A stretch of 20,713 bases of DNA from an uncultured bacterium (GCA_964534375.1 CAZHPN010000101.1:1-20713), one strand, 5' to 3'. Shown: positions 3-20,695, numbered from the stretch's first letter. Notes: generated from the letters alone by a model not told the origin. Made by a program: numbers and translations.

Positions 3-2114
3 CTCGACGGTTACCTGGACGGCTACATATTCAACATTCTGCCGTTCAACGGCGGGCCGGGCATGCTCAACCCGCCGGTGTTCCTGTACACGACAGACGA
101 CGTGGCATCGCTCGATTCCGGGGTCGACGTGACGCAAGCCGCGACCGCCGGCGTGCTCTGGGGCGCCGCCATGTGGACCTCCGGCGGCAACGTCGGCGGC
201 GGCGTCGGCTGCGCGACGTTGGCGACGACGCCAGCGTCGACGACGGCGTATTACGGCCTGCCCGCAAATCCGCTGGCGGCCGAGACCGGCTCCAGCAATA
301 ACTTCGATTTCAACTTTTTCAACGTTCCTCCCGGCGCGTACAACGTCGTGGCGACCGTCGGCGACGACGACCAGCAGGCGTCGCAGGCAGCGTGGGTCGG
401 CGCCGGCGGGTTCACCGTGGCGTTGGTGATTTATGAATCCGGGAATCCGACGCCGGCGGATTGTTCCCCGCCGGTCGTGATCTCGGGACTGGTCTATGCG
501 GCGACGCAGCCGTCGCCAACGCCGGTGGCGGGCGCGGCGGTCGAACTGCTGGTCAACGCGACGGGGGCGCCTTTCGCGCCCGACTTGGCCGGCACGACCA
601 ACAGTTCCGGCGAGTTTTTCCTGGCCGCCCCGGCCGGCACGATGACGGTTGGCCTGAAGGTCACGGCCGCGGGTTACATCGATAGTTACGTGTTCAATCT
701 GCCGACGCAAGGAAACATGCAGCCGGTCCCGTTGTTTCCGGGTACTTTCGCGGAACTTTCGCAAATGGCGGCCTCATCATTCGGCGTGACGTTGGACGCC
801 GACGACGGGCAAGTTTTTGGGTCGGTCGTCTGGCTGGACGCGAACGGCAATCAACTGCCCGTGGGTTGCGCCGCGGTGACCGAAACGCCAAGCTCCGGGG
901 CTCTGATCTATGGCGACGCCAACGGAAATCCGACGCCTGGTTTGACCCAGACGGACCCGAACAGCGGCCAGTTCTTCGGCTTCAATCTGACCGCGGCCGA
1001 ATCGTGCGTTTTTTCCACGACGCTCGGCGGACAGCCGGCCTCGGCGACCGTGCCCTACGTTTATCCTGGGGCGCTGACCTGGATCAACCTGCCGTTCGGC
1101 GGCGCGGCCAATCCGACGCCGGCGAATTGCCAGTCGGGCGACGACGATTCCTCGCCCGACGACGATTCCTCGCCCGACGACGATTCCTCGCCCGATGACG
1201 ACGACAGTGTGGGCGGACCAGGGCCGGGGCCCTCCTGGTCGCTGCTGACGACCGGGAATTGGCCGGATTTGTACGGGGTTTGGGGATTTTCCGCTTCGGA
1301 CGTGTACGCCGTGGGTTACCGTGGCGCCGTATTGCACTACGACGGCGCCTCGGTGTCGGAGATGACGATCGGCGGCGATGTCAACTTCTATTTCTACGGC
1401 ATTTGGGGAAGCTCCGACTCGGATCTTTACGCCGTGGGCGACCTCGAAACGATTCTGCACTTCGACGGCTCTACGTGGTTGCAGGAGAGAGGCGGGGCCG
1501 GCGCTACGTTGTTCCACGTTTGGGGAACAGGCGCCTCGGACGTTTTCGCCGTGGGCGCCGGCGGCCTAATTATGCACTACGATGGAGCATCCTGGTCGAT
1601 GAACACGAGCATAACAAGCGAGACGTTGTACGGAGTTTGGGGAAGCTCACCCTCGAACGTTTTCGCCGTGGGAACCGACAGCTACATATTTCACTACGAT
1701 GGCAATTCGTGGTCGTCGACCAGAACCGGCGGCCCATTCGAGACGTTGTACGGAGTTTGGGGAAACACCTCGGACGTAATCGCCGTGGGGTTCGAGTACC
1801 TGCTGGGGGCCGGCGTGATTCTGGACGATCCCGCGAACGGTTCCAGTTGGTCGGTAATGACGCTGCCGTCGGAGGCGTCGCGGGCGCAGCTAAACAGCGT
1901 CTGGGGAACCGCGTCCTCTTCGAATTTCTTTGCGATCGGGTGGAACGAAAACGAAGGCGCCGGCGTGATTCTCAACTACAGCGGCGCTTCATGGGCAATC
2001 ATGCGACAGCCGTTTGAGTTGCCGAATTTGTACGGCATCTGGGGAACCAGCGCATCGAACTTGTTCGTCGTGGGCTGGTGGGGCACAATCCTGGAGTATG
2101 GCGGCGGCGATTAG
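3..2114 (+). CDS. Large exported repeat protein, 5'-truncated by the window edge: two ~221-aa tandem beta-sandwich-like modules, Asp-rich linker, 7-repeat beta-propeller
   Basis: The frame is open from base 3 (LDGYLDGYIFNILP...) before the ATG at 63. GYLDGYIFNI...VGCA...NPTPADC is repeated as GYIDSYVFNL...VGCA...NPTPANC. A (DDDSSP)3 linker follows, then seven [LF]YG[VI]WGxSxSD[VL]FAVG...ILHYDGxxW repeats. Stop TAG at 2112-2114. Confidence 0.85.
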   Translation, partial: LDGYLDGYIFNILPFNGGPGMLNPPVFLYTTDDVASLDSGVDVTQAATAGVLWGAAMWTSGGNVGGGVGCATLATTPASTTAYYGLPANPLAAETGSSNNFDFNFFNVPPGAYNVVATVGDDDQQASQAAWVGAGGFTVALVIYESGNPTPADCSPPVVISGLVYAATQPSPTPVAGAAVELLVNATGAPFAPDLAGTTNSSGEFFLAAPAGTMTVGLKVTAAGYIDSYVFNLPTQGNMQPVPLFPGTFAELSQMAASSFGVTLDADDGQVFGSVVWLDANGNQLPVGCAAVTETPSSGALIYGDANGNPTPGLTQTDPNSGQFFGFNLTAAESCVFSTTLGGQPASATVPYVYPGALTWINLPFGGAANPTPANCQSGDDDSSPDDDSSPDDDSSPDDDDSVGGPGPGPSWSLLTTGNWPDLYGVWGFSASDVYAVGYRGAVLHYDGASVSEMTIGGDVNFYFYGIWGSSDSDLYAVGDLETILHFDGSTWLQERGGAGATLFHVWGTGASDVFAVGAGGLIMHYDGASWSMNTSITSETLYGVWGSSPSNVFAVGTDSYIFHYDGNSWSSTRTGGPFETLYGVWGNTSDVIAVGFEYLLGAGVILDDPANGSSWSVMTLPSEASRAQLNSVWGTASSSNFFAIGWNENEGAGVILNYSGASWAIMRQPFELPNLYGIWGTSASNLFVVGWWGTILEYGGGD
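1140..1193 (+). repeat. Perfect 18-bp tandem repeat x3 (GACGACGATTCCTCGCCC) encoding DDDSSP
   Basis: Read directly; copies at 1140, 1158 and 1176. Confidence 0.95.
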
Positions 2115-2179
2115 GGCCTCGTCGGGCAGATGCCCTGGCGCCCGCCGGCGAGACCGCCGGGCGGTCAAGCGGAGCCTGC

Positions 2180-2209
2180 TTGACGGTTATGACGCATCGC
2201 ATCTATAAT
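2180..2209 (+). promoter_or_regulatory. Sigma70-type promoter for the hydrolase/acyl-CoA ligase operon
   Basis: TTGACG (2180-2185), 18-nt spacer, TATAAT (2204-2209), ~35 nt before ATG 2244. Confidence 0.65.
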
Positions 2210-2243
2210 TTCCGTCCTAAATTGCACGATTTCGAGGCTGGCC

Positions 2244-3089
2244 ATGAACGGAATCAAACCGCTGGAAGAAACCCTGACCGCGCCCGACCGCACGAAGATA
2301 TTCCTGCGGCGCTGGCCGGTCGCCGATCCGAAAGCCGTGCTCGTCATCTGCCACGGGCTGGGCGAACACGGCGGCCGCTACGGCAACCTCGTGAACGTGC
2401 TGGTTCCGGCCGGCTACGCGTGCTTCGCGCACGATCACCGCGGGCACGGCCGCACCGAAGGCAAACGCGGGCATGTGGATCGTTTCGACCAGTTTCTCGA
2501 CGACGTGCACCTGGTCGTGACCAACGCCCGTGACGCTTATCCGGGGAAGAAAGTTTTTCTGTTCGGGCACTCGATGGGCGGCCTGATCGCCCTCTCGTAC
2601 GCGCTGCACCGGCCCCACGCGGTCGACGGCGTCATCGCCTCGGGCGCCGCGTTGCGGCTGCAAGTAGAGGTGCCGAAGGTCAAGGCGACATTCGGCCGGC
2701 TGGTAGCGTCGCTCGCGCCGACGTTGGCCCTCGGCAACGGCCTGGACCCGAAATGGCTGTCGCACGACCCGGCGGTGGTGCAGGCCTACCTCGAGGATCC
2801 GCTGGTGCACGATCGCGTGACGGCGAAGTTCTTCGTCGAATTCACGGCGGCCATGCGCCGGGCGCTGTTCGCCGCGGGCGCCCTCCAGATGCCGGCGCTG
2901 ATCTATCACGGCGGCGACGACCCGATCTGCGCGCCGCAGGGCTCCGCGGATTTCTACGAACGCGCGGCCTCGCCGGACAAGACCTTCCGCGTGTTCGAGG
3001 GTCAATTCCACGAAACGCACAACGATACGGCCAAGGAACAGGCTGTCGACATGATTCGAGAATGGCTGGATAAACACGCAGCCGTCTAG
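2244..3089 (+). CDS. Alpha/beta-hydrolase, lysophospholipase/monoacylglycerol lipase family
   Basis: HGLGEHGGRY, DHRGHGRT, nucleophile elbow GHSMGG, HGGDDPI (Asp) and GQFHE (His). Confidence 0.93.
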   Translation: MNGIKPLEETLTAPDRTKIFLRRWPVADPKAVLVICHGLGEHGGRYGNLVNVLVPAGYACFAHDHRGHGRTEGKRGHVDRFDQFLDDVHLVVTNARDAYPGKKVFLFGHSMGGLIALSYALHRPHAVDGVIASGAALRLQVEVPKVKATFGRLVASLAPTLALGNGLDPKWLSHDPAVVQAYLEDPLVHDRVTAKFFVEFTAAMRRALFAAGALQMPALIYHGGDDPICAPQGSADFYERAASPDKTFRVFEGQFHETHNDTAKEQAVDMIREWLDKHAAV

Positions 3090-3100
3090 CGGAGGATCGC

Positions 3101-4606
3101 GTGAAGACTCTGAGTTCGTTGCTGACCGAACAGGGCGCAAAATGCGGCGACCAGACGTTCTGCTTTTATGAGAACGAGGAACTGAGTTACGCCTCGTTCG
3201 AAGCCACCTCCAACGCGCTCGCCCATGGCTTGCTCGCCCGCAAAATCAAAAAAGGCGCGGTGGTCGCCTTCCTGCTGCCCAATATCCCGGAGTGGCTGCT
3301 GACGTTCTACGCCGTGATCAAAACCGGGGCCGCGGCGGCGCCGATCAACAGCCTGCTGAAGGCGGAAGAGATCCGCTTCATCCTGGAGAACAGCGAAGCG
3401 CGGATTTTGATCACCATTCCGCAATTCGTGGAGATGGTCCGCGAGATGCAATTGGAACTGCCGGAATTGCGCGAGGTCTACGTGCTGGGCGACGAAGCCC
3501 CGCGCGGCATGTTCGTTTTCGACAAGCTGCTCTCGGACAACGCCGAGGCGCCCGACGTGGCCATCGACCCCAACGACCCGGCCTGCATCATCTACACCTC
3601 GGGCATGACGGGCCGCCCCAAGGGCGCGGTGCTGACGCACAAGAACTATCTGGCGAACGCCCAGCAGATCGTGCAGGCTCTCGATATCACCGCGCGCGAC
3701 CGGCTGCTGAACATCCTGCCGATGTTCCACGTCAACGCCCAACTCGTGACGTTCATCGCGCCGCTGCTCGCCGGCGCGTCGATGGTGCTGATGCGCGGTT
3801 TTTCGCCGCGTCAATTCCTGCCCGCCCTCGACCGCTACAAGGCAACGGCCTTCACCGGCGTGCCGACGGTGTACGCGATCCTGAACGAGTTGCCCGACGC
3901 CGAGGATTACGACCTGTCGATGCTGCGCTTTTGCATTTGCGGCGCCGCCCCGATGCCGATGGACGTGTTCGAGCGGTTCGAGATCAAGTACAAAACAAAG
4001 ATCATCGAGGGCTACGGGCTGTCGGAGGCCACCTGCGCGAGCAGCATCAATCCGATCCGCGGCAAACGCAAGGTCGGCTCGATCGGCCGGCCGCTGCCCG
4101 GCATCGAGATGAAGCTCGTCGACGAAAGCGGCAAAGAGGTCGCGACCGGCGCCGAGGGCGAGATCATCGTCCGCGGCGACACGGTGATGCTCGGCTATCT
4201 GAACGACGCGGCGGCCACCGCCGACACGTTGCGCAACGGCTGGCTGTTCACCGGCGACATCGGCTACGTCGACGAAGACGGCTTTTTCTTCATTCGCGGC
4301 CGCAAGAAAGACATGATCATCCGCGGCGGCGAGAACATCTATCCGCGCGAAGTCGAAGACGTGCTGATCAAGCACCCGCAAATCAAGGAAGTCGCGGTGG
4401 TCGGCAAACCCGATCCGATCTGGGGCGAAGAGGTCACGGCCTACATCGTCGTCGAGGGCCAGGAACGCCCCAGCCGCACCCAACTGATGGAATTCGCCCG
4501 CCAGCACCTGGCCGACTACAAATGCCCGACCAGCATGGTCTTCGTCGAAAGCCTGCCGAAAACCGCGATGATGAAAGTCCGGCGGTGGGCGCTGCGCGAA
4601 GAGTGA
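3101..4606 (+). CDS. Long-chain fatty acid--CoA ligase (ANL adenylating enzyme, FadD/LcfB-like)
   Basis: GGAGG RBS then GTG start. Motifs IIYTSGMTGRPKG, EGYGLSE, TGDIG, GRKKDMIIRGGENIYPREVE and LPKT. Confidence 0.93.
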   Translation: MKTLSSLLTEQGAKCGDQTFCFYENEELSYASFEATSNALAHGLLARKIKKGAVVAFLLPNIPEWLLTFYAVIKTGAAAAPINSLLKAEEIRFILENSEARILITIPQFVEMVREMQLELPELREVYVLGDEAPRGMFVFDKLLSDNAEAPDVAIDPNDPACIIYTSGMTGRPKGAVLTHKNYLANAQQIVQALDITARDRLLNILPMFHVNAQLVTFIAPLLAGASMVLMRGFSPRQFLPALDRYKATAFTGVPTVYAILNELPDAEDYDLSMLRFCICGAAPMPMDVFERFEIKYKTKIIEGYGLSEATCASSINPIRGKRKVGSIGRPLPGIEMKLVDESGKEVATGAEGEIIVRGDTVMLGYLNDAAATADTLRNGWLFTGDIGYVDEDGFFFIRGRKKDMIIRGGENIYPREVEDVLIKHPQIKEVAVVGKPDPIWGEEVTAYIVVEGQERPSRTQLMEFARQHLADYKCPTSMVFVESLPKTAMMKVRRWALREE

Positions 4607-4636
4607 GCATGATGATGCGGCCGGCCGATATGCGTC

Positions 4637-4708
4637 CTCGACCACCTCGCCGACGAGCCAGGTCGTTTCCGGGTCGCGCTCGATCACGATGGCCCAAGTT
4701 CGCTTCAT
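4637..4708 (-). pseudogene. Truncated HicB-like antitoxin remnant (N-terminal 24 aa only)
   Basis: GGGAGG RBS plus ATG at 4708 give MKRTWAIVIERDPETTWLVGEVVE, matching the HicB N-terminal pattern. The expected LPGCxTxG continuation is absent. Confidence 0.6.
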
Positions 4709-4822
4709 GACGCCTCCCTGCGACAATATGCCGACGACGCGCCGGGGCGCGCAAGGGCGCGGAGGGGCGATTTGGCCGGGGTTCGGGCCATCGCCGCCGA
4801 TGAAGTCGACTTCGGCGAACCG

Positions 4823-4851
4823 TTGACAGCGCCAGGCGGAGGCGGGACACT
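4823..4851 (+). promoter_or_regulatory. Possible sigma70 promoter for the Cys-rich lipoprotein
   Basis: TTGACA (4823-4828), 17-nt spacer, GACACT. GAGGAGG RBS precedes ATG 4900. Confidence 0.4.
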
Positions 4852-4899
4852 AAGTATCTCTGGAAATCGCCTTGTTGATTTTGAAGAGGAGGCGTCGCC

Positions 4900-5781
4900 A
4901 TGAACCGCAGTCGTTGGGTGCTGTTCCTCCTGTTGACGATCGTCGTGGTCGCTGGCGCGACGATCGCCTGCAGCGGTTCCAGCAGCAGCAAGAGCGGCGG
5001 CAAGGCCGCTGGTGACGACGACGACACGGCGCTCGGCGCCTGTTGCTACGACGGCGTCTGCGCGTCTCAGACCCGCGCGGCCTGCAGCGCCGAATGGCAG
5101 GGCGCGGGAACCGATTGCGCCGACAACCCCTGCTCGCCGACGCCGAGCGACGATGACTCTTCGCCGGACGACGACGACGACAATGACAACGACGACGACG
5201 CGACGCCGCCGCTCGGGGCGTGTTGCCAGGGCGCCGCGTGCGCCGTGAAGCCCTACGCCGATTGCGCGGGATCCTGGATGGGCGCGGACACGATTTGCGT
5301 GCCGAACCCGTGCGTCGACGATGACGACGACAACGACGACAACGACGACAACGATAACGATAACGACAACGACGACTCGTGGGGCGCCTGCTGCCAGGGC
5401 GAATACTGTCTTTCGGCGACCGAAACGCGGTGCGGCGCGATGGGCGGGGCCTGGCACGGCGGCGAGGTCTGCGCCGGCAACCCCAACCCCTGCGGCTTCG
5501 CCGACGGCGCGTGCTGCGCGCCCATTTCCGGGGGCGGCGACGAGTGCATCGACACGACGTCGAGCGCCTGCTCGGCCATCACCGGCGGCCAGTACGTCGC
5601 CGGCGCGCCGTGCTCGCAGTTGCCTTGCTCGTGGATCGGCGGAGCCTGCTGCGGCAACGGCGAATGTTACGACGGCACGGACCAGGCCGGTTGCCAAACC
5701 CAGGGTGGAACCTTTTTCAACGAGCAGACCTGCGCCGCCGTCGAGTCGCAGTGCGCCGCGCAGCAGTCGCTCGCGCAATAG
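4900..5781 (+). CDS. Cys-rich lipoprotein with five GACC modules and Asp/Asn-rich linkers
   Basis: Signal peptide with lipobox-like TIAC. Five GACC-initiated modules of 6 Cys each. Linkers such as DDDSSPDDDDDNDNDDD. Strong RBS. Confidence 0.88.
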   Translation: MNRSRWVLFLLLTIVVVAGATIACSGSSSSKSGGKAAGDDDDTALGACCYDGVCASQTRAACSAEWQGAGTDCADNPCSPTPSDDDSSPDDDDDNDNDDDATPPLGACCQGAACAVKPYADCAGSWMGADTICVPNPCVDDDDDNDDNDDNDNDNDNDDSWGACCQGEYCLSATETRCGAMGGAWHGGEVCAGNPNPCGFADGACCAPISGGGDECIDTTSSACSAITGGQYVAGAPCSQLPCSWIGGACCGNGECYDGTDQAGCQTQGGTFFNEQTCAAVESQCAAQQSLAQ

Positions 5782-5940
5782 CCGGCGGCCGGCGGGCGCC
5801 GCTGGCGGGCGCGCATCACCGGACCGGACGCCGTTGGCCAACCGCCCCTATATTTTGCCGGCCTGATCGCGTATATTTACATATCTGCTTTTTGGACTTT
5901 TGACGAAAAAAGGGACATGTCCTGCGAAAGGAGACGGCAA

Positions 5941-7092
5941 ATGAAGCTGGCTCATTGGTCGATCGCATTCCTGGCGTTGGCGCTGGCGGTGTTCCTGACG
6001 GCGGCGTGCGGCAGTTCGAGCACGAGCAGCAGCGCCGCGGCGGACGACGACAACGACGCGTCGCCCGATGACGACGATGACGATGTCTCGCCCGATGACG
6101 ACGACAACGACGACAACGACGCCTCGCCGGACGACGACGACAATGACGACGACGACACGCGGCCGCCGCTCGCCGGGGTTTGGGGAAGCTCGGACTCCGA
6201 CGTGTTCGCCGTAGGAACCAAGGTCTTTTTCATGGACCAGCAGCCGCGCACCGAAGGCGTGATCCTGCACTACGACGGCTCGACGTGGTCGACGATGCTT
6301 GGCGGCGACGTGCTCATCCAGGCCACGGGGATTTGGGGCGCGTCGCCGAGCGACGTGTACGCCGTGGGCTATTACGGGATCCTGCACTATGACGGCTCAA
6401 CGTGGTCGAGCGCCGCAACCAGCGACGAAGCGCTGCTCGGCGTTTGGGGAAGCTCGTCCACCGATGTGTTCGCCGTCGGCTACGAGAACACGATCCTGCA
6501 TGACGACGGTTCCGCGTGGTCGACGATGCCGGGCGGGAACGGAGACTTCGCGTATCGGGGCGTGTGGGGCGCCTCGCCGTCCGACGTTTTCGCCGTCGGG
6601 ATCGCGGTCAACAACCTCACCGCCGCCAGCGTCATCATGAACTACAATGGCTCGTCGTGGTCGAGCGCCTGGGCAGGGGTCAAGGTCGTCTTGCTCGGCA
6701 TTTGGGGGACCTCGGCGTCCGACGCGTTCGCCGTGGGCGACGATGTTCAAAACGCGGATGTCGCCGCCGTTTTGCACTACGACGGTTCGACGTGGTCGGC
6801 GACCGCCGGCCCGGGCAACGTACTGCAGATCGAGAGCGTCTGGGGCGCCTCGCCTTCCGCCGTGTTCGGCGTGGGTTGCGGCAGCTTTGCCGCGAACGGC
6901 GGTTGCACCGAAGGCGCGATCGCGCAGTACGATGGCTCGGCGTGGTCGGCGATGCCGGGCGCGGCGGCGACGACGAACCTCAACGGCGTGTGGGGGACCT
7001 CCGGCTCCGCCGCGTTCGCCGTGGGCTGCGAGCTGAATTGCAACTACGGCGTGATTCTGCGTTACGACGGATCGGCCTGGTCGGCGATGTGA
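5941..7092 (+). CDS. Lipoprotein with Asp-rich linker and 7-repeat beta-propeller
   Basis: AGGAGA RBS favours ATG 5941 (MKLAHWS...). Lipobox LTAAC, a DDDNDASPDDD linker, then seven GVWGxSxSDVFAVG...LHYDGSxWS repeats paralogous to the first gene. Confidence 0.9.
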   Translation: MKLAHWSIAFLALALAVFLTAACGSSSTSSSAAADDDNDASPDDDDDDVSPDDDDNDDNDASPDDDDNDDDDTRPPLAGVWGSSDSDVFAVGTKVFFMDQQPRTEGVILHYDGSTWSTMLGGDVLIQATGIWGASPSDVYAVGYYGILHYDGSTWSSAATSDEALLGVWGSSSTDVFAVGYENTILHDDGSAWSTMPGGNGDFAYRGVWGASPSDVFAVGIAVNNLTAASVIMNYNGSSWSSAWAGVKVVLLGIWGTSASDAFAVGDDVQNADVAAVLHYDGSTWSATAGPGNVLQIESVWGASPSAVFGVGCGSFAANGGCTEGAIAQYDGSAWSAMPGAAATTNLNGVWGTSGSAAFAVGCELNCNYGVILRYDGSAWSAM

Positions 7093-7235
7093 GGCCGGGC
7101 CGCAAAACCCTTCTTGCGCGAACTTCAACTATTATGCGAATGTCTCTCGTCGCGGCCGACGCCGGCAAAGAATTCGCCGCCGCGGCGAACGTCGGGCGGC
7201 GGTCGCGGCCGTCGCTTTGCAGGGGATCTGACATC

Positions 7236-8036
7236 ATGATCGAGACCATTTGCCGCTATATCCAGAAGCATCGCCGCCGCGCGATGCCTCTGATCGACAA
7301 GCTCGTCGCGGCCGATCTGCGGTCGGTCGCCCGCCGCCCGGGCGAGACGTTCGACGTCCTGGCGCATCTCGACGATTTGCAGGACGACCCCGACGCGTTC
7401 GCCGCGACGATGGCGCGGTTCGTCCGCGGGCGCGAGGGCGAGTTGGCGACGACATTCGGCGGCCAGTCGGTGACGCGCATCGCCTACGACGACGCGAAGT
7501 GGCAGGCCGTCGTCGCGATCGATTTCATCGGCAACAATCGGTTCGATCTGGCCGGCCTGCAGGAGCGGCTCGTTCCGGCGTTCGAGCCGGCCGATCTGGA
7601 GACGCTGATCGAATTGGCCGCCGGCTTTCTCGCCGAAAACGTCGGCCGGCCGTTCGGCTACGAATTGCACGCGGACGGCGCCGCGTTTCTCGCCGGCCGG
7701 CTGCAGGGCCGATCGGTGACCGTGCAGGTGCTCGACGTGCGGGCCTGCCTCAAAGCCCTCGTGTTTCTGATGCGCAAAAGCGAGGCGAGCGTGCTGGTCC
7801 GTTCGGCGGCGGACGTGCTGGCGCTGGCCGAGCAGGGACAAGATCTGTTGTGCTTCGCGGCCGAGGCCTACGAAGAGCGCGACCTGACGGTGACGGTGGA
7901 TTTCCGCGGCGAAAATATCTTTCGCTGCGGCAAGGGCGTGAAATCGAACTTGGGTTCCCGTTTCGGCCCGACGGCGTTGCAATTGGATGCGGTGGTGCGC
8001 ATGATGATGTCGGCCATGCCAGGGAGAGGTAAATGA
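7236..8036 (+). CDS. Hypothetical protein (~266 aa), coupled to the rhomboid gene
   Basis: Only the 3' part of the 6516..8036 ORF reads as protein-like. Start is uncertain (7236 or 7284). The stop overlaps the next start (ATGA 8033-8036). Confidence 0.7.
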   Translation: MIETICRYIQKHRRRAMPLIDKLVAADLRSVARRPGETFDVLAHLDDLQDDPDAFAATMARFVRGREGELATTFGGQSVTRIAYDDAKWQAVVAIDFIGNNRFDLAGLQERLVPAFEPADLETLIELAAGFLAENVGRPFGYELHADGAAFLAGRLQGRSVTVQVLDVRACLKALVFLMRKSEASVLVRSAADVLALAEQGQDLLCFAAEAYEERDLTVTVDFRGENIFRCGKGVKSNLGSRFGPTALQLDAVVRMMMSAMPGRGK

Positions 8037-8773
8037 GTTCGTATCCGGGCGGCGGCTATGAAGGCCGGCCGCAATTCCGTTTCGGCGGCCCGCTGACGCC
8101 GGTGGTCAAGGGTTTCATGATCGCTTGCGCGGCGGTGTTCGCCGTGCAGTTCTTCTGGCGCGGCTGGGGCGGCGGCGGCGACTTCGATCGCCTCTTCGGC
8201 CTGTACACGCCGTGGTTCTGGCGCGGCGCTTTCTTTCAACTGCTGACCTTCCACTTTTTGCACGGGTCGATCTGGCACCTCGCCTTCAACATGCTGACGA
8301 TGTGGATGTTCGCCGGCGAACTGGAGCAACTCTGGGGCGCCAAAAAATTCGTCATTTATCTCTTCGTCGTCGGCCTCGGGGCCGGCGCCTGCCAACTGCT
8401 CTCGGCGCCATTCCTCGACGTTCCGGTGATCGGCGCGTCGGGCATCGTCTACGGCATTTTGCTCGCGTTCGGCATGACGTATCCGAACCGCGTGGTGCTG
8501 CTGTATTTTCTGATTCCGCTGAAGGTGAAGTGGCTCGTCATCGGCATGGGCGTGATCGAGTTTTCGATGGCCTTCGATCCGTCGGGCCCGATGAAGATCG
8601 CGCACTTCGCCCACCTCGGCGGCATGCTGTTCGGCTTCCTGTTCCTGCGCTGGGACGGCTTGTTCCTGCGGCTGCGCGGCGCCTATTATCGGCGCAAGCT
8701 TGAACGGCAGCGCAAAAAGCGGAAAATCTACGTGGTGCGCGGCGACGGCGACGAGCCGCCGTTCGTGCACTGA
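8033..8773 (+). CDS. Rhomboid family intramembrane serine protease
   Basis: QLLTFHFLHGSIWHLAFNM, catalytic GASG and AHFAHLGG, with multiple TM helices. Confidence 0.95.
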   Translation: MSSYPGGGYEGRPQFRFGGPLTPVVKGFMIACAAVFAVQFFWRGWGGGGDFDRLFGLYTPWFWRGAFFQLLTFHFLHGSIWHLAFNMLTMWMFAGELEQLWGAKKFVIYLFVVGLGAGACQLLSAPFLDVPVIGASGIVYGILLAFGMTYPNRVVLLYFLIPLKVKWLVIGMGVIEFSMAFDPSGPMKIAHFAHLGGMLFGFLFLRWDGLFLRLRGAYYRRKLERQRKKRKIYVVRGDGDEPPFVH

Positions 8774-8815
8774 GCCGGCGGACGCGCGAGCAACGACAAC
8801 GGACGGGACCATTTC

Positions 8816-10612
8816 ATGAAGCGGCTGGGCCGGATCGTCTTGGCGGCGGCGATCGCGATTTGCGTCGCGGCCCCGTTCGCGACAGCCGCGCCGCTGCAGT
8901 ATTCGCTCTCGATCTTCCACTTCGACATCGAGTCGGTCATCGGCGGGTTGTACGGCTTCGTGCCGGCGCCGGGCGACTGGCCGACATGGGACATCAGCCC
9001 CGAAGCCGTCGAAGATATGATCGTAACCGAGAGTTTCGCGCCGCTGCTCGCGCTGCTGCAAGCGCACCCGGAGTGGACGTTCACCATCGAGATGCAGGCG
9101 TACATGGTCGAGGTGCTGGCGGCGCGGCACGCGGACGTTCTCGCGGCGTTGCAAAAGTTGACGGCCGCGGGCCAGGTCGAATTGGTGTCGTTTCACTACG
9201 CCGGCCAGTTTTTCATCGCGCACCCCTATGACGATTGGAAGCAGAGCCTCGCCCTCGCCCAGCAGGTTTTCGCGGCCAACAACCTCAAGCTTTCCGGCGT
9301 CGTCTTCTGCCAGGACGGCCAGGCGGCCGAGGGCATCGCCTCGCACATGAGCGAGGAAGGCTACACGGTCATGGCCTGGCCAGCCGACCTGTGGACCTAT
9401 CAGCACGGCGCCTTCGACGCCGCGCCGTATTACGAATTCGGCGACGCGCGGCTGGTCGTCGCCGGGCAATCGGTTGCCGACGCGGTTGACGGCGTTTACG
9501 TCAGTTGGAGCTACATGGGCGACGGCGAATTGCTGGCCACCGGCGGCGTCAGTCCGTACTTCCCGTGGTTTTTCCACGACCGGTCCGAGGCAGTCGCGAA
9601 TTTCGCCGCCGCGGTCGAGCAGCAAGAGGAGCAGGGCTACCTGATCAGTTCGATCGCCGGCTACGTGCAAGCCCTTCAGACGGCCGGCATCGCGGCCGCG
9701 CAGCCGCCGCCGCTGCTCGACGGCGCGTGGCAGCCCGCGACGACCGACGGCAATTCCCGCTGGCTCGGCGGCATCGGCGTCTGGGCGGCGGCCGAGCGCG
9801 ACAACCACGTGCGCACGCTGGCGGCGATGGCGCATCGCGAAATCCTGGCGGCGCAGACGATCGCCGCCGCCGCGGGCCTCGACAGCACGGCCGTCCTCGC
9901 CGAAGCGTGGCGCCAGCTTGCCCTCGGCGAGGTCTCGAACGGCACGGGCGTCAATCCGTATCTCGGCGAGGTCGACTTCTGCATCGCCAGTTCGGCCGAG
10001 GCGTTCCGCATCGCGCGGGCCGTGATTTACGAAGCGAAGGCGACGCTCGGCTTGGGCGGCGCGCTGATCGACACGGCGACCGGCGCCGTGACCCCCGGCG
10101 AGTTCGCCTGGCCTGGCGCGCCGACCGGCAAGGCGCCGCTGCAACTGACCGTCGCGGCGGACGGCCGGAGCGCGCAGGTCAGTTGGTTCGCGGAAAGTCA
10201 AAGCCCGCCGACGTGGCGCGTGGAAATCGCGTTCTCCGCCAGTCTCGTCGCGACCGCGCGCACGCTGTCCGTGACGTTCCCGGGAACGGGCGACGAGATT
10301 CAAACGACGACGGCGCTGGTCGACGACGCCGTGCAAACGTACGCGCGCTCGGACTTCTCGTTCGACCACTGGTATCTCCCCGCGCCGATCGGCCTCGTCG
10401 GCCTCGGCGGCGGCTGGTGGGTCGTCAAGGACCAGGCCAACGTCCACGTCGCGGCGCGGATCGAGACCGCCGACAGCGACGTGCAGTTCGTCGACAACAC
10501 CGCGCCGTGGTTCGAGACGATCACCTGGATCTTCCACGTCGTCCAAGGCGCCGACGCCGACGCGTTGGCGCTGGCGGACCGCATCAACGTCCACCCGACG
10601 TTGGCGCGGTGA
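8816..10612 (+). CDS. Secreted GH57-like (beta/alpha)7-barrel protein
   Basis: Signal peptide. FHFD, SFAPLL, GQVELV, FCQDGQ, MGDGEL and GEVSN line up in order with GH57 conserved regions. C-terminal region is beta-rich. Confidence 0.7.
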   Translation: MKRLGRIVLAAAIAICVAAPFATAAPLQYSLSIFHFDIESVIGGLYGFVPAPGDWPTWDISPEAVEDMIVTESFAPLLALLQAHPEWTFTIEMQAYMVEVLAARHADVLAALQKLTAAGQVELVSFHYAGQFFIAHPYDDWKQSLALAQQVFAANNLKLSGVVFCQDGQAAEGIASHMSEEGYTVMAWPADLWTYQHGAFDAAPYYEFGDARLVVAGQSVADAVDGVYVSWSYMGDGELLATGGVSPYFPWFFHDRSEAVANFAAAVEQQEEQGYLISSIAGYVQALQTAGIAAAQPPPLLDGAWQPATTDGNSRWLGGIGVWAAAERDNHVRTLAAMAHREILAAQTIAAAAGLDSTAVLAEAWRQLALGEVSNGTGVNPYLGEVDFCIASSAEAFRIARAVIYEAKATLGLGGALIDTATGAVTPGEFAWPGAPTGKAPLQLTVAADGRSAQVSWFAESQSPPTWRVEIAFSASLVATARTLSVTFPGTGDEIQTTTALVDDAVQTYARSDFSFDHWYLPAPIGLVGLGGGWWVVKDQANVHVAARIETADSDVQFVDNTAPWFETITWIFHVVQGADADALALADRINVHPTLAR

Positions 10613-10622
10613 GGAGGCGGCC

Positions 10623-11192
10623 GTGAGTAAAATCCCCTGGCTGCTCGCGGCGCTCGCGGCCCTGGGTTTGCTCGCGGCCTGCCAGTCCGCGCGGCATCAC
10701 GCCTCGCCCGCGCCCGCTCCGGCCGACGACGACGCCGCCGACGACGATTCCTCGCCCGACGACGACGCGACGGCGGCCGACGACGATTCCGCGCCGCCGT
10801 ACGTTCAGAAATATCAGTTTGCCTTGGCGATCGAGGTCCAATTCCAGGCGACTTTGAAATTGGCGCAGAACCCGAATGGCAATTTGACGGCCGCCTTCAT
10901 CCCGCAACAGGGCTTCGACGTGCTGCTGGCCGGCACGACGCTGCTCGGCTCGGGCCAACTGTGGAGCATCCCGGAAGCGAACGGCCGCATGGTGATGCTG
11001 CGGCTCAACGGCCCGGCGGCGCCGAACGGCCCCTGCGGCAACAATCCGATTTCGTACGCCGTGTCGCTGACCGCCAAAGCAAGCAACGCCTACATGGTCG
11101 GCGGCTTGACCGCGTATTGCGGCGCGAACACGTTCACCGGTTCGCCCGCGCGCGTCATGCGCCTCGCCGGCTGGCAAACGAAGGTCGAGTAA
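10623..11192 (+). CDS. Lipoprotein with Asp-rich linker and unknown beta-rich domain
   Basis: GAGGAGG RBS, GTG start, lipobox LLAAC and linker DDDAADDDSSPDDDATAADDDS. Confidence 0.85.
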   Translation: MSKIPWLLAALAALGLLAACQSARHHASPAPAPADDDAADDDSSPDDDATAADDDSAPPYVQKYQFALAIEVQFQATLKLAQNPNGNLTAAFIPQQGFDVLLAGTTLLGSGQLWSIPEANGRMVMLRLNGPAAPNGPCGNNPISYAVSLTAKASNAYMVGGLTAYCGANTFTGSPARVMRLAGWQTKVE

Positions 11193-11796: not shown

Positions 11797-11831
11797 GCAT
11801 TCCGCATTCGGCATTCCACATTCCGCATTTC
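11797..11831. repeat. 7-mer array (GCATTCC x5) abutting the nrdJ stop codon
   Basis: gcattcc gcattcg gcattcc acattcc gcatttc; the last base is shared with the TAG stop. Confidence 0.9.
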
Positions 11832-18810: not shown

Positions 18811-20319
18811 ATGAACGAAAACACTCCGCAGCCGGCGGCTGACAAGTGGCCGCGAACGATCCTGGTCGTCGCGATTGCGGCGTTTCCGCTGGCGAAATTT
18901 CTCTTCGCGGCAATCTCCCGGATGCGTTACCCGTGGGATCTGGAGTGGCTCGAGTGCCAGTGCATGGAAATGGCCGGCCGGTTTGTGCAGGGCCTGCCGC
19001 TATACACGCCGCCGACGATCCGCCATGCGCCGCTGCCGTATTTCCCGCTGTATTTCGTCGTCACCGGGCTGCTGTACCGCGCGACGGGCGTCGTCTATTG
19101 GGCCGGGCGGCTCGTTTCCCTGGCGGCGACGGTCGCGACGGGCGCCATTGTCTTTTGGGTCGTGCGGCGCACGGTCAAACAACTGGCGCCGGCGGCGGTC
19201 GCGGCGGGTTTGTGGTTCGCGACGTACGGCTTCAGCGGCTTTTTCTCCGATTTGAATCGCGTCGATGCGCTGGCCGTGTTCTTCCTCGCGGCGGCGGCCG
19301 CGGCGGCGTTCACGCGCGCCGGCGCCGGGGCCGGCCTGGCGGCCGGCGCCTTGCTCGCCGCCTCGGCGCTGACCAAACAAAACCACCTGCTCTTTCTCGG
19401 CCCGCTCGTCCTCGTGCAACTCGTGCGCGGCGACCGGCGCGGCGCCCTCGCCGCCGCAGCGATGTTCGTCGCCCTCTTCGGCGGCGTGGCGTTGGTTTGG
19501 AACCGCGCGTCCGACGGCTGGTTGTGGCGCATGACCATGCAGTTCGTGACCTTCGGGCCGTCGCCGGTGCGCATCATCGGCTTCGCGCTCGTTTATCTGC
19601 GGCGGTTGCCCGTGCCCGGCGTGATTCTGATTTCCTGCGTCGTGCGGCTGCTGCGCCGGCGCCAATGGCGGGAACTATTCGGCGATCCGTGGCTGGTGTT
19701 CTGGGCGGCGTCGTCGGCGATCTCGCTGACGATGTTTCTCGGGCTGGGCGCGTTTTCCAATGCCGGCATGCCCGCGGCGCTCGGCGTCGCAATCGCCACC
19801 GGCATGAAGTTGCCCGATTTCGCCCGCCGGCTCGAGGCGCGCTTCGCGCGCGGCCGGGCCCGCGCCCCGCGCTGGGTGCTGCCGGCGCTCGCCGCGGCGA
19901 TCGTTTTCGCCGCGTATGTGCCGGTCGCGGGGCAGATTCCGAAGCCCGCGCAATGGACCGCGGCCGAGAAATTGCACGCCTTGATCCGCGCACAACCGGG
20001 CCCGGTGCTGATCCCGGAATTCATGTCAACGGAGCCGAACGTCGTGCCGTTTCACGAAATGAGTTACTTCGATCTGCGGGTGATCCCGCGCGACACCTGG
20101 CGCGAGCCGTGGCTCCGGCAAGTGGAAACCGACCTGCGGAACCTGCATCCGTCGATGGTCCTCGCCAGCGACGACTTTCGCAAAAACCGCCAATATCATC
20201 TCGCGGTGGCCGGCATGACCCTCGCGCCGCTGCCCGACGATCTGCGCGTGCGCACCTTCACCGGCCGCGCGGCGACGCTGACGGACGTCTTCCGGCGAGA
20301 CGCCGGCGGTGAGCAGTGA
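18811..20319 (+). CDS. Polytopic GT-C fold glycosyltransferase (ArnT/PMT-like)
   Basis: YPWDLEWLE first loop, YFPLY, GRLVSL, RVD and LTKQN motifs, many TM helices and a soluble C-terminal domain. Confidence 0.78.
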   Translation: MNENTPQPAADKWPRTILVVAIAAFPLAKFLFAAISRMRYPWDLEWLECQCMEMAGRFVQGLPLYTPPTIRHAPLPYFPLYFVVTGLLYRATGVVYWAGRLVSLAATVATGAIVFWVVRRTVKQLAPAAVAAGLWFATYGFSGFFSDLNRVDALAVFFLAAAAAAAFTRAGAGAGLAAGALLAASALTKQNHLLFLGPLVLVQLVRGDRRGALAAAAMFVALFGGVALVWNRASDGWLWRMTMQFVTFGPSPVRIIGFALVYLRRLPVPGVILISCVVRLLRRRQWRELFGDPWLVFWAASSAISLTMFLGLGAFSNAGMPAALGVAIATGMKLPDFARRLEARFARGRARAPRWVLPALAAAIVFAAYVPVAGQIPKPAQWTAAEKLHALIRAQPGPVLIPEFMSTEPNVVPFHEMSYFDLRVIPRDTWREPWLRQVETDLRNLHPSMVLASDDFRKNRQYHLAVAGMTLAPLPDDLRVRTFTGRAATLTDVFRRDAGGEQ

Positions 20320-20450
20320 GCAGTGAACAATGAACAGTGACCAATGAGCGGCGTGGCGCCGAATTCGCTTGCCGCGCTGCCGCCGCGCATTGTTCATTAT
20401 TCATTGTTCATTATTCACTGTTCATTGTTCAGCGTTCGCCGTTCACCGTT
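20307..20450. repeat. Pair of inverted 7-mer arrays (CARTGAR x6; CAYTRTT-like x9) around a 39-nt spacer
   Basis: cggtgag cagtgag cagtgaa caatgaa cagtgac caatgag (20307-20348) and cattgtt cattatt cattgtt cattatt cactgtt cattgtt cagcgtt cgccgtt caccgtt (20388-20450). Confidence 0.9.
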
Positions 20451-20477: not shown

Positions 20478-20531
20478 GCCGCCGCCCGCCAGCGCGCCGG
20501 TTGGTTGCCAGTTCGCCGTCGCCGACGTCCC

Positions 20532-20695
20532 GAAACTGGAGTTCCCGAAACTGGTGCCCCGAAACTGGTGCCGGAAACTGGTGCTGCCGGAAACTGGTGC
20601 CAGCCACTTCGGAGACGACCTCCAACGCCCGCCCCCGAAACTGGTGCCAGCCGAAACTGGTGCCAGCCACTTCGGAGAAGACCTCCAACGCCCGC
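20532..20695. repeat. Cluster of seven GAAACTGG(TGCC) units including a 63-bp-period duplication
   Basis: Cores at 20532, 20547, 20561, 20574, 20590, 20637 and 20653. The 43-nt blocks 20590-20632 and 20653-20695 differ at one base. Confidence 0.92.

Follow-up and report, generated by a model that had tools for sequence, protein, structure and literature searches.

A 20,713-nt contig from an uncultured bacterium (GCA_964534375.1, CAZHPN010000101.1:1-20713; contig C101, called the window below) carries four genes whose products share Asp-rich stretches built from DDDxSPDDD and DDN units. The locus raises the question of what such a segment is, and why proteins with different folded heads should have it in common. 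An initial annotation had taken the four genes for a modular surface-display system joined by one acidic tether, which might also serve as a handle for exchanging heads. We considered this proposal in the light of the genome to which the window belongs, a metagenome-assembled genome (MAG; G000) of 6.30 Mb in 381 contigs with 64% G+C and 94% completeness, and of its relatives. Stretches of the DDDxSPDDD and DDN kinds belong to a single linker type, found across the lineage and confined to exported proteins. In the most likely reading, which we regard as probable, they form a polyanionic stalk or linker module that is disordered and self-repelling, whose composition is selected and whose turnover is driven by its repeats. 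The idea of a four-gene system did not survive: nothing sets these genes apart within a class that spans the genome and counts about 320 proteins and 386 acidic blocks.

The acidic linker class and its tie to export

For the genome-wide survey we assembled a rough set of 4,294 genes, consisting of open frames of at least 90 amino acids (aa) whose third-position G+C was at least 0.72 and the highest of the three codon positions. Overlaps were settled by length, and some genes, gene 4 of the window among them, are missing from the set. An acidic tract was defined as at least 7 Asp in 12 residues and a lipobox by a PROSITE-like regular expression, both applied genome-wide. Tracts were found in 320 proteins, a lipobox in 500 and both in 208 (odds ratio (OR) 23, p 9e-130), with 41.6% of the lipobox proteins carrying a tract; a six-frame scan of the genome placed D{3,}.SPD{3,} in 129 stop-to-stop open reading frames (ORFs). 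Among the 112 tract-bearing proteins outside the lipobox class, 24 are cut at the 5′ end by a contig edge, and 80 of the other 88 begin with a signal-peptide-like N-terminus, compared with 31% of other, ordinary proteins that pass the same lenient rule. The remaining eight comprise five with an evident lipobox that the expression missed, two unclear cases and one clearly cytoplasmic protein, which we take from its sequence type to be the RNA polymerase beta′ subunit and whose Glu/Asp-rich C-terminal tail is a different kind of acidic tail. No clear cytoplasmic carrier of a DDDxSP/DDN-type tract was found in the rough gene set, and a lipobox-like Cys could be read in 29 of the 31 N-terminal tethers outside the lipobox class. 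The suggested tie to export is thus well founded, and far from occurring equally in cytoplasmic proteins the tract is almost wholly absent from them.

Merging of neighbouring tracts gave 386 acidic blocks, divided into 208 N-terminal tethers, 98 internal linkers, 64 C-terminal tails (at most 45 residues from the end) and 16 unclassifiable cases; the internal class includes the linker of gene 1 and linkers 2 and 3 of gene 2. Block length has a median of 37.5 residues, its 5-95% range runs from 14 to 97, and the longest block has 184 residues; the blocks consist of 58% Asp, 11.6% Asn, 7.3% Ser, 6.9% Ala, 6.5% Pro and 3.4% Thr. Tracts start a median of 14 residues past the Cys. The layout is best seen in 176 tethered lipoproteins, where position +2 is Gly, Ala or Ser in 88% of cases and positions +3 to +8 are 63-70% Ser, Gly or Thr. 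Asp and Glu together make up 1-6% of residues at +2 to +8 and at most 10% through +12, reach 60-68% at +15 to +17, dip at +18 to +20, where the x-S-P of the first unit falls, and then rise again. For the first DD the median position is +15, with an interquartile range of 13-16 and a 10-90% range of 10-17.5. The material is used mainly as an N-terminal lipoprotein tether, in which a lipidated Cys is followed by an uncharged, mostly Gly/Ser-rich spacer of about 13 residues, by acid from about +15 and then by the head; the same Asp-rich material also joins domains, as in genes 1 and 2, and makes C-terminal tails.

The composition of the blocks bears on a different proposal, that the poly-Asp tracts chiefly bind divalent cations (Ca2+/Mg2+) or minerals, or carry O-glycans on Ser/Thr-Pro, and so fasten proteins to lipopolysaccharide, exopolymer or particles. 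Calcium and its minerals are bound by poly-Asp peptides, and Asp is the dominant residue here. The residue before Pro is Ser in 65% and Thr in 11% of 784 cases, [ST]P is present in 265 of the 386 blocks, and a hydroxy residue before Pro is kept across genera, being Ser in G000 and mostly Thr in the relatives G005 and G006, whose units are mostly of the x-T-P and not the x-S-P flavour. Still, 121 of the 386 blocks lack [ST]P altogether, and the units do not match the O-glycosylation sequon of Bacteroidota, D-(S/T)-(A/I/L/V/M/T). We regard binding or glycosylation as quite an unlikely chief function.

How far the linker reaches beyond this genome was assessed with a DNA pattern for DDDx[S/T]PDDD in 201 genomes, 17 of the window's class (G000 included) and 184 of other lineages. 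The pattern has 303 matches in G000 and was found in 7 of 7 genomes of the same family (1-165 matches each) and 9 of 9 other genomes of the class (1-10 each). It is thus present in 17 of 17 class genomes, compared with 0 of 184 others from 174 families and of up to 8.4 Mb, while a backwards control pattern gave one match across all 201 genomes. Lineage specificity, likewise proposed at the outset, is clear from these counts. Among the genomes compared there is no kin between 'same class' and 'same domain', as would suit a candidate phylum of small size. A class II ribonucleotide reductase encoded nearby was tried as a marker and gave no placement, as the 80 loci retained were only 50-61% identical and came from many phyla. 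In the literature searched, supplements excluded, we found no prior description of poly-Asp lipoprotein tethers or of such a trait in this phylum; the searched text of the description of Lernaellota, a label that is unverified for G000, contains neither 'lipoprotein' nor 'acidic', its supplements again excluded (PMC9324843).

These distributions also speak to an account in which the tracts are functionless by-products of GAC-repeat slippage that are tolerated in disordered exported segments. Such neutrality would agree with the short tandem DNA repeats that make up every linker of the window, with the free variation of length and sequence among homologues of gene 4, and with unit flavours that vary by genus. 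It is hard to reconcile with the near-total exclusion from cytoplasmic proteins, with a start position that is tight within the genome, with an acidic tether at the same place in homologues that are only 32-53% identical, and with a pattern present throughout the class and absent from all 184 other genomes (some of them comparably large, their base composition unchecked). We consider it very unlikely.

Two further observations concern C-terminal ends and the pattern matches of one family. C-terminal tracts are typically followed by a bare ...GCGC end. In 32 rough-called proteins (e.g. on contigs C11, C17, C22, C28, C49, C53 and C232) the sequence ...GCGC stands directly before the stop; an Asp-rich tract lies just before this end in 28 of the 32, and the stop is TGA in 27 of the 32 versus about half of all genes. 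Tails of the form ...DDDDGCGC are common in G005 and G006 (loci L131-L190), and no GCGC-tailed gene was found within the window. In family f3 (G013, G015, G011 and G009), many of the few pattern matches encode DDD-[F/Y/H/L/T]-W-P-DDD, with TGG at the S/T position, and may represent a motif of one protein family, not a linker unit.

The window genes and their heads

All four window genes lie on the plus strand and are real open frames with the coding signature of the genome (third-position G+C 0.79-0.87). Their translations confirm an Asp-rich linker in each, and in genes 2, 3 and 4 a lipobox Cys before the acidic tract ([LVI][ASTVI][GAS]-C at about residue 15-35, with a basic n-region and a hydrophobic core), the first DD following at +16, +13 and +16, respectively. 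Gene 1 (<3..2114) encodes a multi-domain exported protein whose 5′ end is cut by the contig edge, and its lipobox cannot be judged because the start lies off the contig. Its N-terminal region is beta-sandwich-like, with a weak CarboxypepD_reg match (E 1.2e-4) under the Pfam cut-off, and is joined by an internal Asp-rich linker (1140..1211) to a C-terminal propeller (about 1239-2111). The linker reads CQSG-DDDSSPDDDSSPDDDSSPDDDD-SVGGPGPGP, that is, CQSG-(DDDSSP)3-DDDD-SVGGPGPGP.

Gene 2 (4900..5781) encodes a predicted lipoprotein with the lipobox ...GATIAC and Cys24 at 4969-4971, followed by the G/S-rich spacer SGSSSSKSGGKAAG and a short DDDD at +16. The head consists of four or five Cys-rich GACC...NPC modules, for which the Pfam scan matched no family, with two D/N linkers between modules: linker 2 (5143..5208), which reads SDDDSSPDDDDDNDNDDDA and contains a (GAC)n array at 5167-5205, and linker 3 (5305..5379), a (DDN)n stretch on a 9-nt tandem array at 5316-5376. 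Gene 3 (5941..7092; an alternative upstream ATG at 5917 is possible) encodes a predicted lipoprotein with the lipobox ...LTAAC and Cys23 at 6007-6009. After GSSSTSSSAAA comes an acidic tether of about 43 residues, DDDNDASPDDDDDDVSPDDDDNDDND..., at 6040..6168, with tandem arrays of period 27 and 36 at 6043-6156, and then a propeller (about 6169-7089). Gene 4 (10623..11192) has a GTG start and encodes a predicted lipoprotein with the lipobox ...GLLAAC and Cys20 at 10680-10682; the sequence continues as QSARHHASPAPAPA-DDDAADDDSSPDDDATAADDDS into a small beta domain (about 10806-11183). Its tether, DDDAADDDSSPDDDATAADDDS, lies at 10725..10790 and overlaps tandem arrays of period 12-18 at 10722-10786.

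That the heads differ holds for three kinds and not four, as the propellers of genes 1 and 3 are paralogues (41-43% identical, E 1e-48). Neither propeller matched a Pfam family over its cut-off, and that of gene 3 had no sequence match to solved structures at E <= 0.01. An AlphaFold2 model of gene 3, based on nine paralogues, has a block-mean predicted local distance difference test score (pLDDT) of 39-56 over residues 1-72 and 28 strands, mostly with pLDDT >90, over residues 77-383. Its best solved matches by Foldseek are 7-bladed Ycf48 propellers (E 3e-9, target template modelling (TM) score 0.66). As modelled, gene 3 and Ycf48 have the 7-bladed beta-propeller fold in common, a statement about the fold and not about family membership. 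The corresponding model of gene 4, based on eight homologues, has pLDDT <50 over residues 15-58 and an 8-stranded beta barrel with pLDDT >90. The barrel gave weak avidin/lipocalin-like fold matches, the best at E 0.014 (avidins, target TM score 0.6-0.7) and none reaching 0.001. In both models the tether is predicted as a disordered segment before a folded head.

For gene 4 the tether could be followed through the class. A best-matching homologue, taken as the orthologue, was found in 7 of 7 genomes of the family (48-56% identity) and in 8 of 9 other genomes of the class (28-38%). Each of the eight aligned homologues has its lipobox and some 35-50 residues of acidic tether, in which sequence, length and units vary; DDDSSPDDD occurs only in the window copy, and several of the relatives' proteins start C-D-K-N-D-D-D or C-Q-K-x-N-N-x-D-D-D. 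Judging from this alignment, the gene 4 tether keeps its composition while its sequence drifts. With a constant head and a drifting tether in all eight, there is therefore no head swapping in the gene 4 family.

The four genes do not stand in one unbroken cluster, since an alpha/beta hydrolase (Hydrolase_4, E 3e-82) and an AMP-binding enzyme of the acyl-CoA ligase type (E 5e-98) lie between genes 1 and 2 (2244-4606); no signal peptide was noticed in the N-termini of these two as translated. Downstream, a rhomboid-family gene (8033-8773; Pfam Rhomboid, E 8e-24), a gene for a 598-aa exported protein (8816-10612) that matched no Pfam family, and gene 4 are arranged head-to-tail at 8033-11192. In the class relative G016, the locus around the gene 4 homologue (L130) also holds a homologue of the 598-aa protein, which suggests that their linkage is conserved. 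Intergenic DNA of the window contains tandem arrays of 7-nt units (GCATTCC x4.7, GTGAGCA x5.9, CATTGTT x6.3) and of 13-16-nt units (CCGAAACTGGTGC-like), at 11797-11829, 20309-20349, 20388-20431 and 20527-20695. Similar heptamer runs, of the CAGTGA type, are located just 5′ of lipoprotein genes on contig C234 of the same genome.

Linker DNA: repeats, shared codings and 5′ cassettes

Every linker of the window is encoded by in-frame tandem DNA repeats with a period of 3, 9, 18, 27 or 36 nt, and length and sequence would therefore change fast by slippage. Selection may maintain the composition of the tether while slippage alters its length and sequence.

The initial annotation had pointed to 26 identical nucleotides in genes 1 and 4, at 1140-1165 and 10740-10765, as a possible trace of exchange. 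The identity is real and has a further exact copy at 1158-1183 and a one-mismatch copy at 1176-1201, so that the gene 1 linker holds three copies within an 18-nt tandem array (1139-1201, 3.5 copies, 97% match); dinucleotide-preserving shuffles gave no 26-mer match in 100 trials. Genome-wide the 26-mer occurs in 9 copies in 7 genes, and the flanks diverge immediately in all 9. It is the commonest coding of DDDSSPDDD, used in 8 of 51 instances and in 6 of 34 encoding genes of the rough set. Given the peptide, its probability is 0.0013-0.0022 under plain codon usage and rises to 0.016 or 0.039 under a codon-pair model trained outside or on the linkers, because Asp outside linkers is written GAT in 62% of cases before a codon starting with T and in 13% before one starting with A or G (39% before C; 13,940 counts before T, 53,972 before A or G, and between 13,940 and 38,807 for each of the four following letters). 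Under the codon-pair model, two independent codings of DDDSSPDDD are expected to match over 26 nt in 1.0-1.5% of cases, and 32 of 1,253 between-gene pairs (2.6%) do. In a similar comparison of 231 DDDxSPDDD units, 70 between-gene pairs were identical versus 45 +/- 9 after column shuffling, and 5 of 500 shuffles reached 70. Synonymous identity among linkers is therefore in excess, modestly and by about two-fold, while the identity in the window is readily explained by the peptide and by codon habits. As a trace of exchange it fails, with flanks that differ at once and a codon-pair bias that largely suffices. The modest excess would be compatible with some shared descent of units.

A broader form of this idea can be assessed elsewhere in the genome, namely that linker DNA is a dispersed low-complexity repeat and a substrate for recombination, by which 5′ cassettes, each made up of a ribosome-binding region, a signal peptide and a tether, would be copied to or exchanged among different heads. 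When the 176 tethered genes were compared with one another over the DNA between start codon and first acidic tract, 11 gene pairs were 86-96% identical over 84-128 nt of the signal-peptide region. Eight of these pairs have assessable heads, which are 32-56% identical in six pairs and without detectable similarity in two. In an adjacent pair on contig C234, near-identity begins about 20 nt 5′ of the start codon, runs through the signal peptide and ends inside the D-linker, beyond which one gene encodes a Lcl_C/propeller head and the other a PA-IL-like head; in a pair on contigs C66 and C142 identity likewise fades within the linker. The window linkers have 249-1,313 BLASTN matches elsewhere in the genome (75-91% identity over 60-175 nt), and the modest excess of identical units points in the same direction. 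However, the cassette-sharing pairs include no window gene, identity of the 26-mer stops at the unit edges in all its copies, most of the excess comes from the genome-wide codon-pair bias, and the gene 4 homologues have no swapped heads. Only two breakpoints were read base by base, and gene conversion of 5′ ends requires no special role of the linker. The 'recombination handle' thus stands in part, for gene pairs elsewhere whose shared 5′ DNA breaks inside the linker, and is not borne out for the genes on which it was proposed. From these alignments it is plausible that 5′ cassettes have been copied or exchanged with junctions in the linker at some gene pairs elsewhere in the genome. As a general account we hold cassette exchange to be a live reading, though less likely than not; it is compatible with a stalk, and neither excludes the other.

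Linker DNA of this kind is also met in public sequencing runs. Over positions 900-7200, the identical contigs in wetland runs (metagenomes X1-X3 and metatranscriptome X5) stop where the linkers lie, at 1168/1177, 5199/5338 and 6072/6120-6165. Bins that contain a linker have hundreds-fold more summed contig depth than their neighbours, e.g. 3,325 versus about 7 in X1. Many other loci or organisms contribute to this depth, so these communities must be rich in DNA that resembles the linkers, and short-read assemblies break at it. The runs were unusable for linker-length polymorphism, as contigs all end at linkers; the sole indel listed, at 1168-1170, spans 3 nt and is carried by one X3 contig at depth 4, and 'joints' between linkers, at 90% likeness, proved to be artefacts of the repeats. 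One metatranscriptome run has contigs that contain exact segments of genes 2 and 3, those of gene 2 at 4947-5210 and 5572-5822. They are compatible with expression and do not prove it, because DNA may occur in such a library. For the annotation of these genomes it matters that the linkers break short-read assemblies and attract spurious similarity matches.

A probable stalk, a possible sorting signal and known lipoprotein segments

Which heads are tethered was surveyed by a Pfam scan of proteins from 40 tiles of at most 20 kb each. Single-linkage BLASTP clustering of heads was left out of the family counts, since one cluster of 122 was chained through multidomain and repeat proteins. Heads among 74 tethered lipoproteins include three of glycoside hydrolase (GH) family GH92, two GH5, one GH59, a melibiase, five FGE-sulfatase-like proteins and three arylsulfotransferases, together with clostripain-like (C11), papain-like (C1), PNGase F-like and ceramidase-like proteins. 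Further heads are seven Lcl_C, PA-IL, LamG, Kelch and FG-GAP/ASPIC, with nine weak propeller matches, and 25 of the 74 matched no Pfam family. The 90 untethered proteins sampled include BamD, ApbE, an L,D-transpeptidase, a PBP-type binding protein, TAtT, LemA, LPP20, a multihaem cytochrome, TPR and Sel1 proteins, three penicillin amidases, several peptidases, a sulfatase and some glycoside hydrolases. All housekeeping periplasmic types met in the sample are untethered. In all, the tethered set looks like an exoproteome for the binding and breakdown of polymers, although the division by head type is not clean.

Profile searches of the genome gave BamD and two LolA-family matches over cut-off, from which an outer membrane and the Lol pathway are likely present. 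In such an envelope, the charged chain would be kept extended by self-repulsion and by stiffening through Pro. As a polyanion it would be repelled by the anionic membrane surface, so that enzymes, lectin-like domains and propellers would be held away from the membrane on a stalk of about 10 nm or more; a long disordered N-terminal linker may also aid Lol-type handling of the lipoprotein. Of the lineage-specific acidic stalk that had been proposed, the distribution and the restriction to export are borne out, and the stalk role itself is what we infer.

Several points weigh against a stalk. Two redoxins and one cupredoxin are among the tethered proteins, and the same kinds of head occur in both classes: Lcl_C (7 with and 4 without a tether), FGE-sulfatase-like (5 and 2), as well as ceramidase-like proteins and some glycoside hydrolases. 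The distance from Cys to acid depends on the genus, at +2 to +5 and typically about +4 in G005 (6 distinct genes once one duplicate and one false lipobox are set aside), +5 to +15 in G006 (8 distinct genes) and +15 in G000, and such uniformity within a genome is not predicted by a pure spacer. Gene and lipobox calls rest on our own rough rules, the 40 tiles were picked for lipoprotein density and not at random, and the untethered sample holds false lipoproteins (DctM, DsbD, a histidine kinase and an acyltransferase). Protein location and tether extension are both predicted.

In another role, the acidic tract and its Gly/Ser lead-in would be primarily a sorting signal for export to the surface or to vesicles, or for escape from the default Lol route, in the manner of the Bacteroidota and Acinetobacter signals compared below. 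A signal of this kind would agree with the division of lipobox proteins into two classes, about 42% with the tract and the others lacking it, with the tight placement of the acid within the genome, and with head types suited to extracellular polymer use. At +2 to +8, a G/S-rich lead-in of 5 or more of the 7 residues is found in 94 of 176 tethered but only 16 of 292 untethered lipoproteins (OR 20, p 1e-32). On the other hand, 98 internal linkers and 64 C-terminal tails of the same material cannot be an N-terminal signal, and head families are shared between tethered and untethered proteins. We judge a primary sorting role to be possible, though rather unlikely; it does not exclude a stalk.

The choice of lipoproteins for the surface of diderm bacteria has been solved for few groups, namely the lipoprotein export signal (LES) of Bacteroidota, Slam, Borrelia and T2SS (type II secretion system) with GspN. 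Of these, the LES is a segment of 4-5 residues whose position at +2 to +6 is critical, with the consensus Q-K-D-D-E in Capnocytophaga and SDDDD in B. fragilis; it takes the forms K-(D/E)2, Q-A-(D/E)2 or S-D-D-D-D (Lauber et al. 2016, PMC5080379), and the Bacteroidota signal is also treated by Valguarnera et al. 2018 (PMC6222051). Like the LES, the G000 tether places an acidic run after polar residues beyond the +1 Cys, and LES lipoproteins are largely glycan-degrading or glycan-binding proteins of the surface. Unlike it, G000 has at most 6% Asp and Glu at +2 to +8 and its acid begins at about +15 (first DD at +13 to +16 in the window), where a position-critical signal would lie beside the Cys; the tract is about ten times longer, and the organism is of a different lineage. 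Closer to the LES than G000 itself are G005, with acid from +2 to +5, and gene 4 homologues with C-[D/Q]-K-x-D-D or, more broadly, C-[D/Q]-K-x-[D/N]-[D/N], which resemble the Capnocytophaga consensus and the B. fragilis SDDDD and lend some support to sorting.

The closest match in make-up is the motif of T2SS-dependent lipoproteins. In Acinetobacter baumannii a G/S-rich or N/D-rich motif at P2′-P8′ is required for surface localisation, and a T2SS/GspN-dependent sorting motif is described for A. baumannii, Burkholderia and Klebsiella (PMC12802150). The tether of G000 combines C-G-S-S-S-S-S... with a later D/N tract. The motif is a run of more than 4 G/S or N/D in P2′-P8′, and a lead-in of at least 5 of 7 G/S is present in the 94 of 176 tethered proteins given above; within the window, genes 2 (CSGSSSSK) and 3 (CGSSSTSS) fit, unlike gene 4 (CQSARHHA). 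In those species the motif stays within P2′-P8′, unlike the acid of G000, which lies further out. The genome has two secretins, an AsmA-like match and a GspL-like match (32.6 bits over cut-off; control matches in E. coli and Caulobacter only), which would agree with a sorting route, but a search for GspN (PF01203) in G000, 94% complete, found none while control genomes gave matches. The T2SSK profile (PF03934) was discarded as evidence for a T2SS: its one weak match is uninformative, as controls were positive in 10 of 14 genomes, Gram-positives included. Slam (PF04575) had no match in G000, which says nothing, since the search was also blank in 14 of 14 control genomes. A 1567-aa open frame on contig C9 (about 32831-37531, minus strand) combines an AsmA-like match with an internal Asp-rich tract at frame residues 897-930.

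The known kind to which the tethers belong, and which accords with a stalk, is the long disordered linker of lipoproteins. In E. coli, such N-terminal linkers of RcsF, NlpD and Pal are required for proper Lol sorting, and about half of the lipoproteins have an unstructured segment of >22 residues between the Cys and the first folded element (preprint of El Rayes et al., 10.1101/2021.01.05.425367). The predicted models exceed this length, with 41 residues in gene 4 (Cys20 to a strand at 62) and 53 in gene 3 (Cys23 to a strand at 77). As in E. coli, a large share of lipobox proteins (about 42%, by acidic tract) is concerned and the LolA family is present. Unlike the E. coli linkers, which have no common composition, the G000 tether is of one stereotyped polyanionic type, is up to 184 residues long and repeat-encoded, and serves also as interdomain linker and C-terminal tail.

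Secreted multidomain enzymes such as cellulases have Pro/Thr/Ser-rich low-complexity linkers between domains, which are neutral and often glycosylated. The linkers of genes 1 and 2 resemble these as disordered spacers of repeated units between exported modules and differ from them in being dominated by Asp.

A more far-reaching scheme would join several of these elements into charge-coded routing of the exoproteome. A Gly/Ser lead-in with poly-Asp would send about two fifths of the lipoproteins to the surface, possibly by a T2SS/AsmA-like route, and then act as a stalk; poly-Asp before a C-terminal Gly-Cys-Gly-Cys would anchor a second set; and repeat-encoded DNA would move cassettes between heads. 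The signals of Bacteroidota and Acinetobacter would then be special cases of a wider, possibly ancient acidic code. We offer this as a speculation that is, taken as a whole, unlikely to be correct.

Within the known kind of long disordered lipoprotein linkers, what is new here is one stereotyped polyanionic type across a whole proteome. As a repeat-encoded and highly charged natural stalk it may be of use in surface display. For the biology of the organism, the marking of about 40% of its lipoproteins by one stereotyped segment provides a clean two-class set in which to ask whether charge near the lipid anchor is a general code for routing to the surface.

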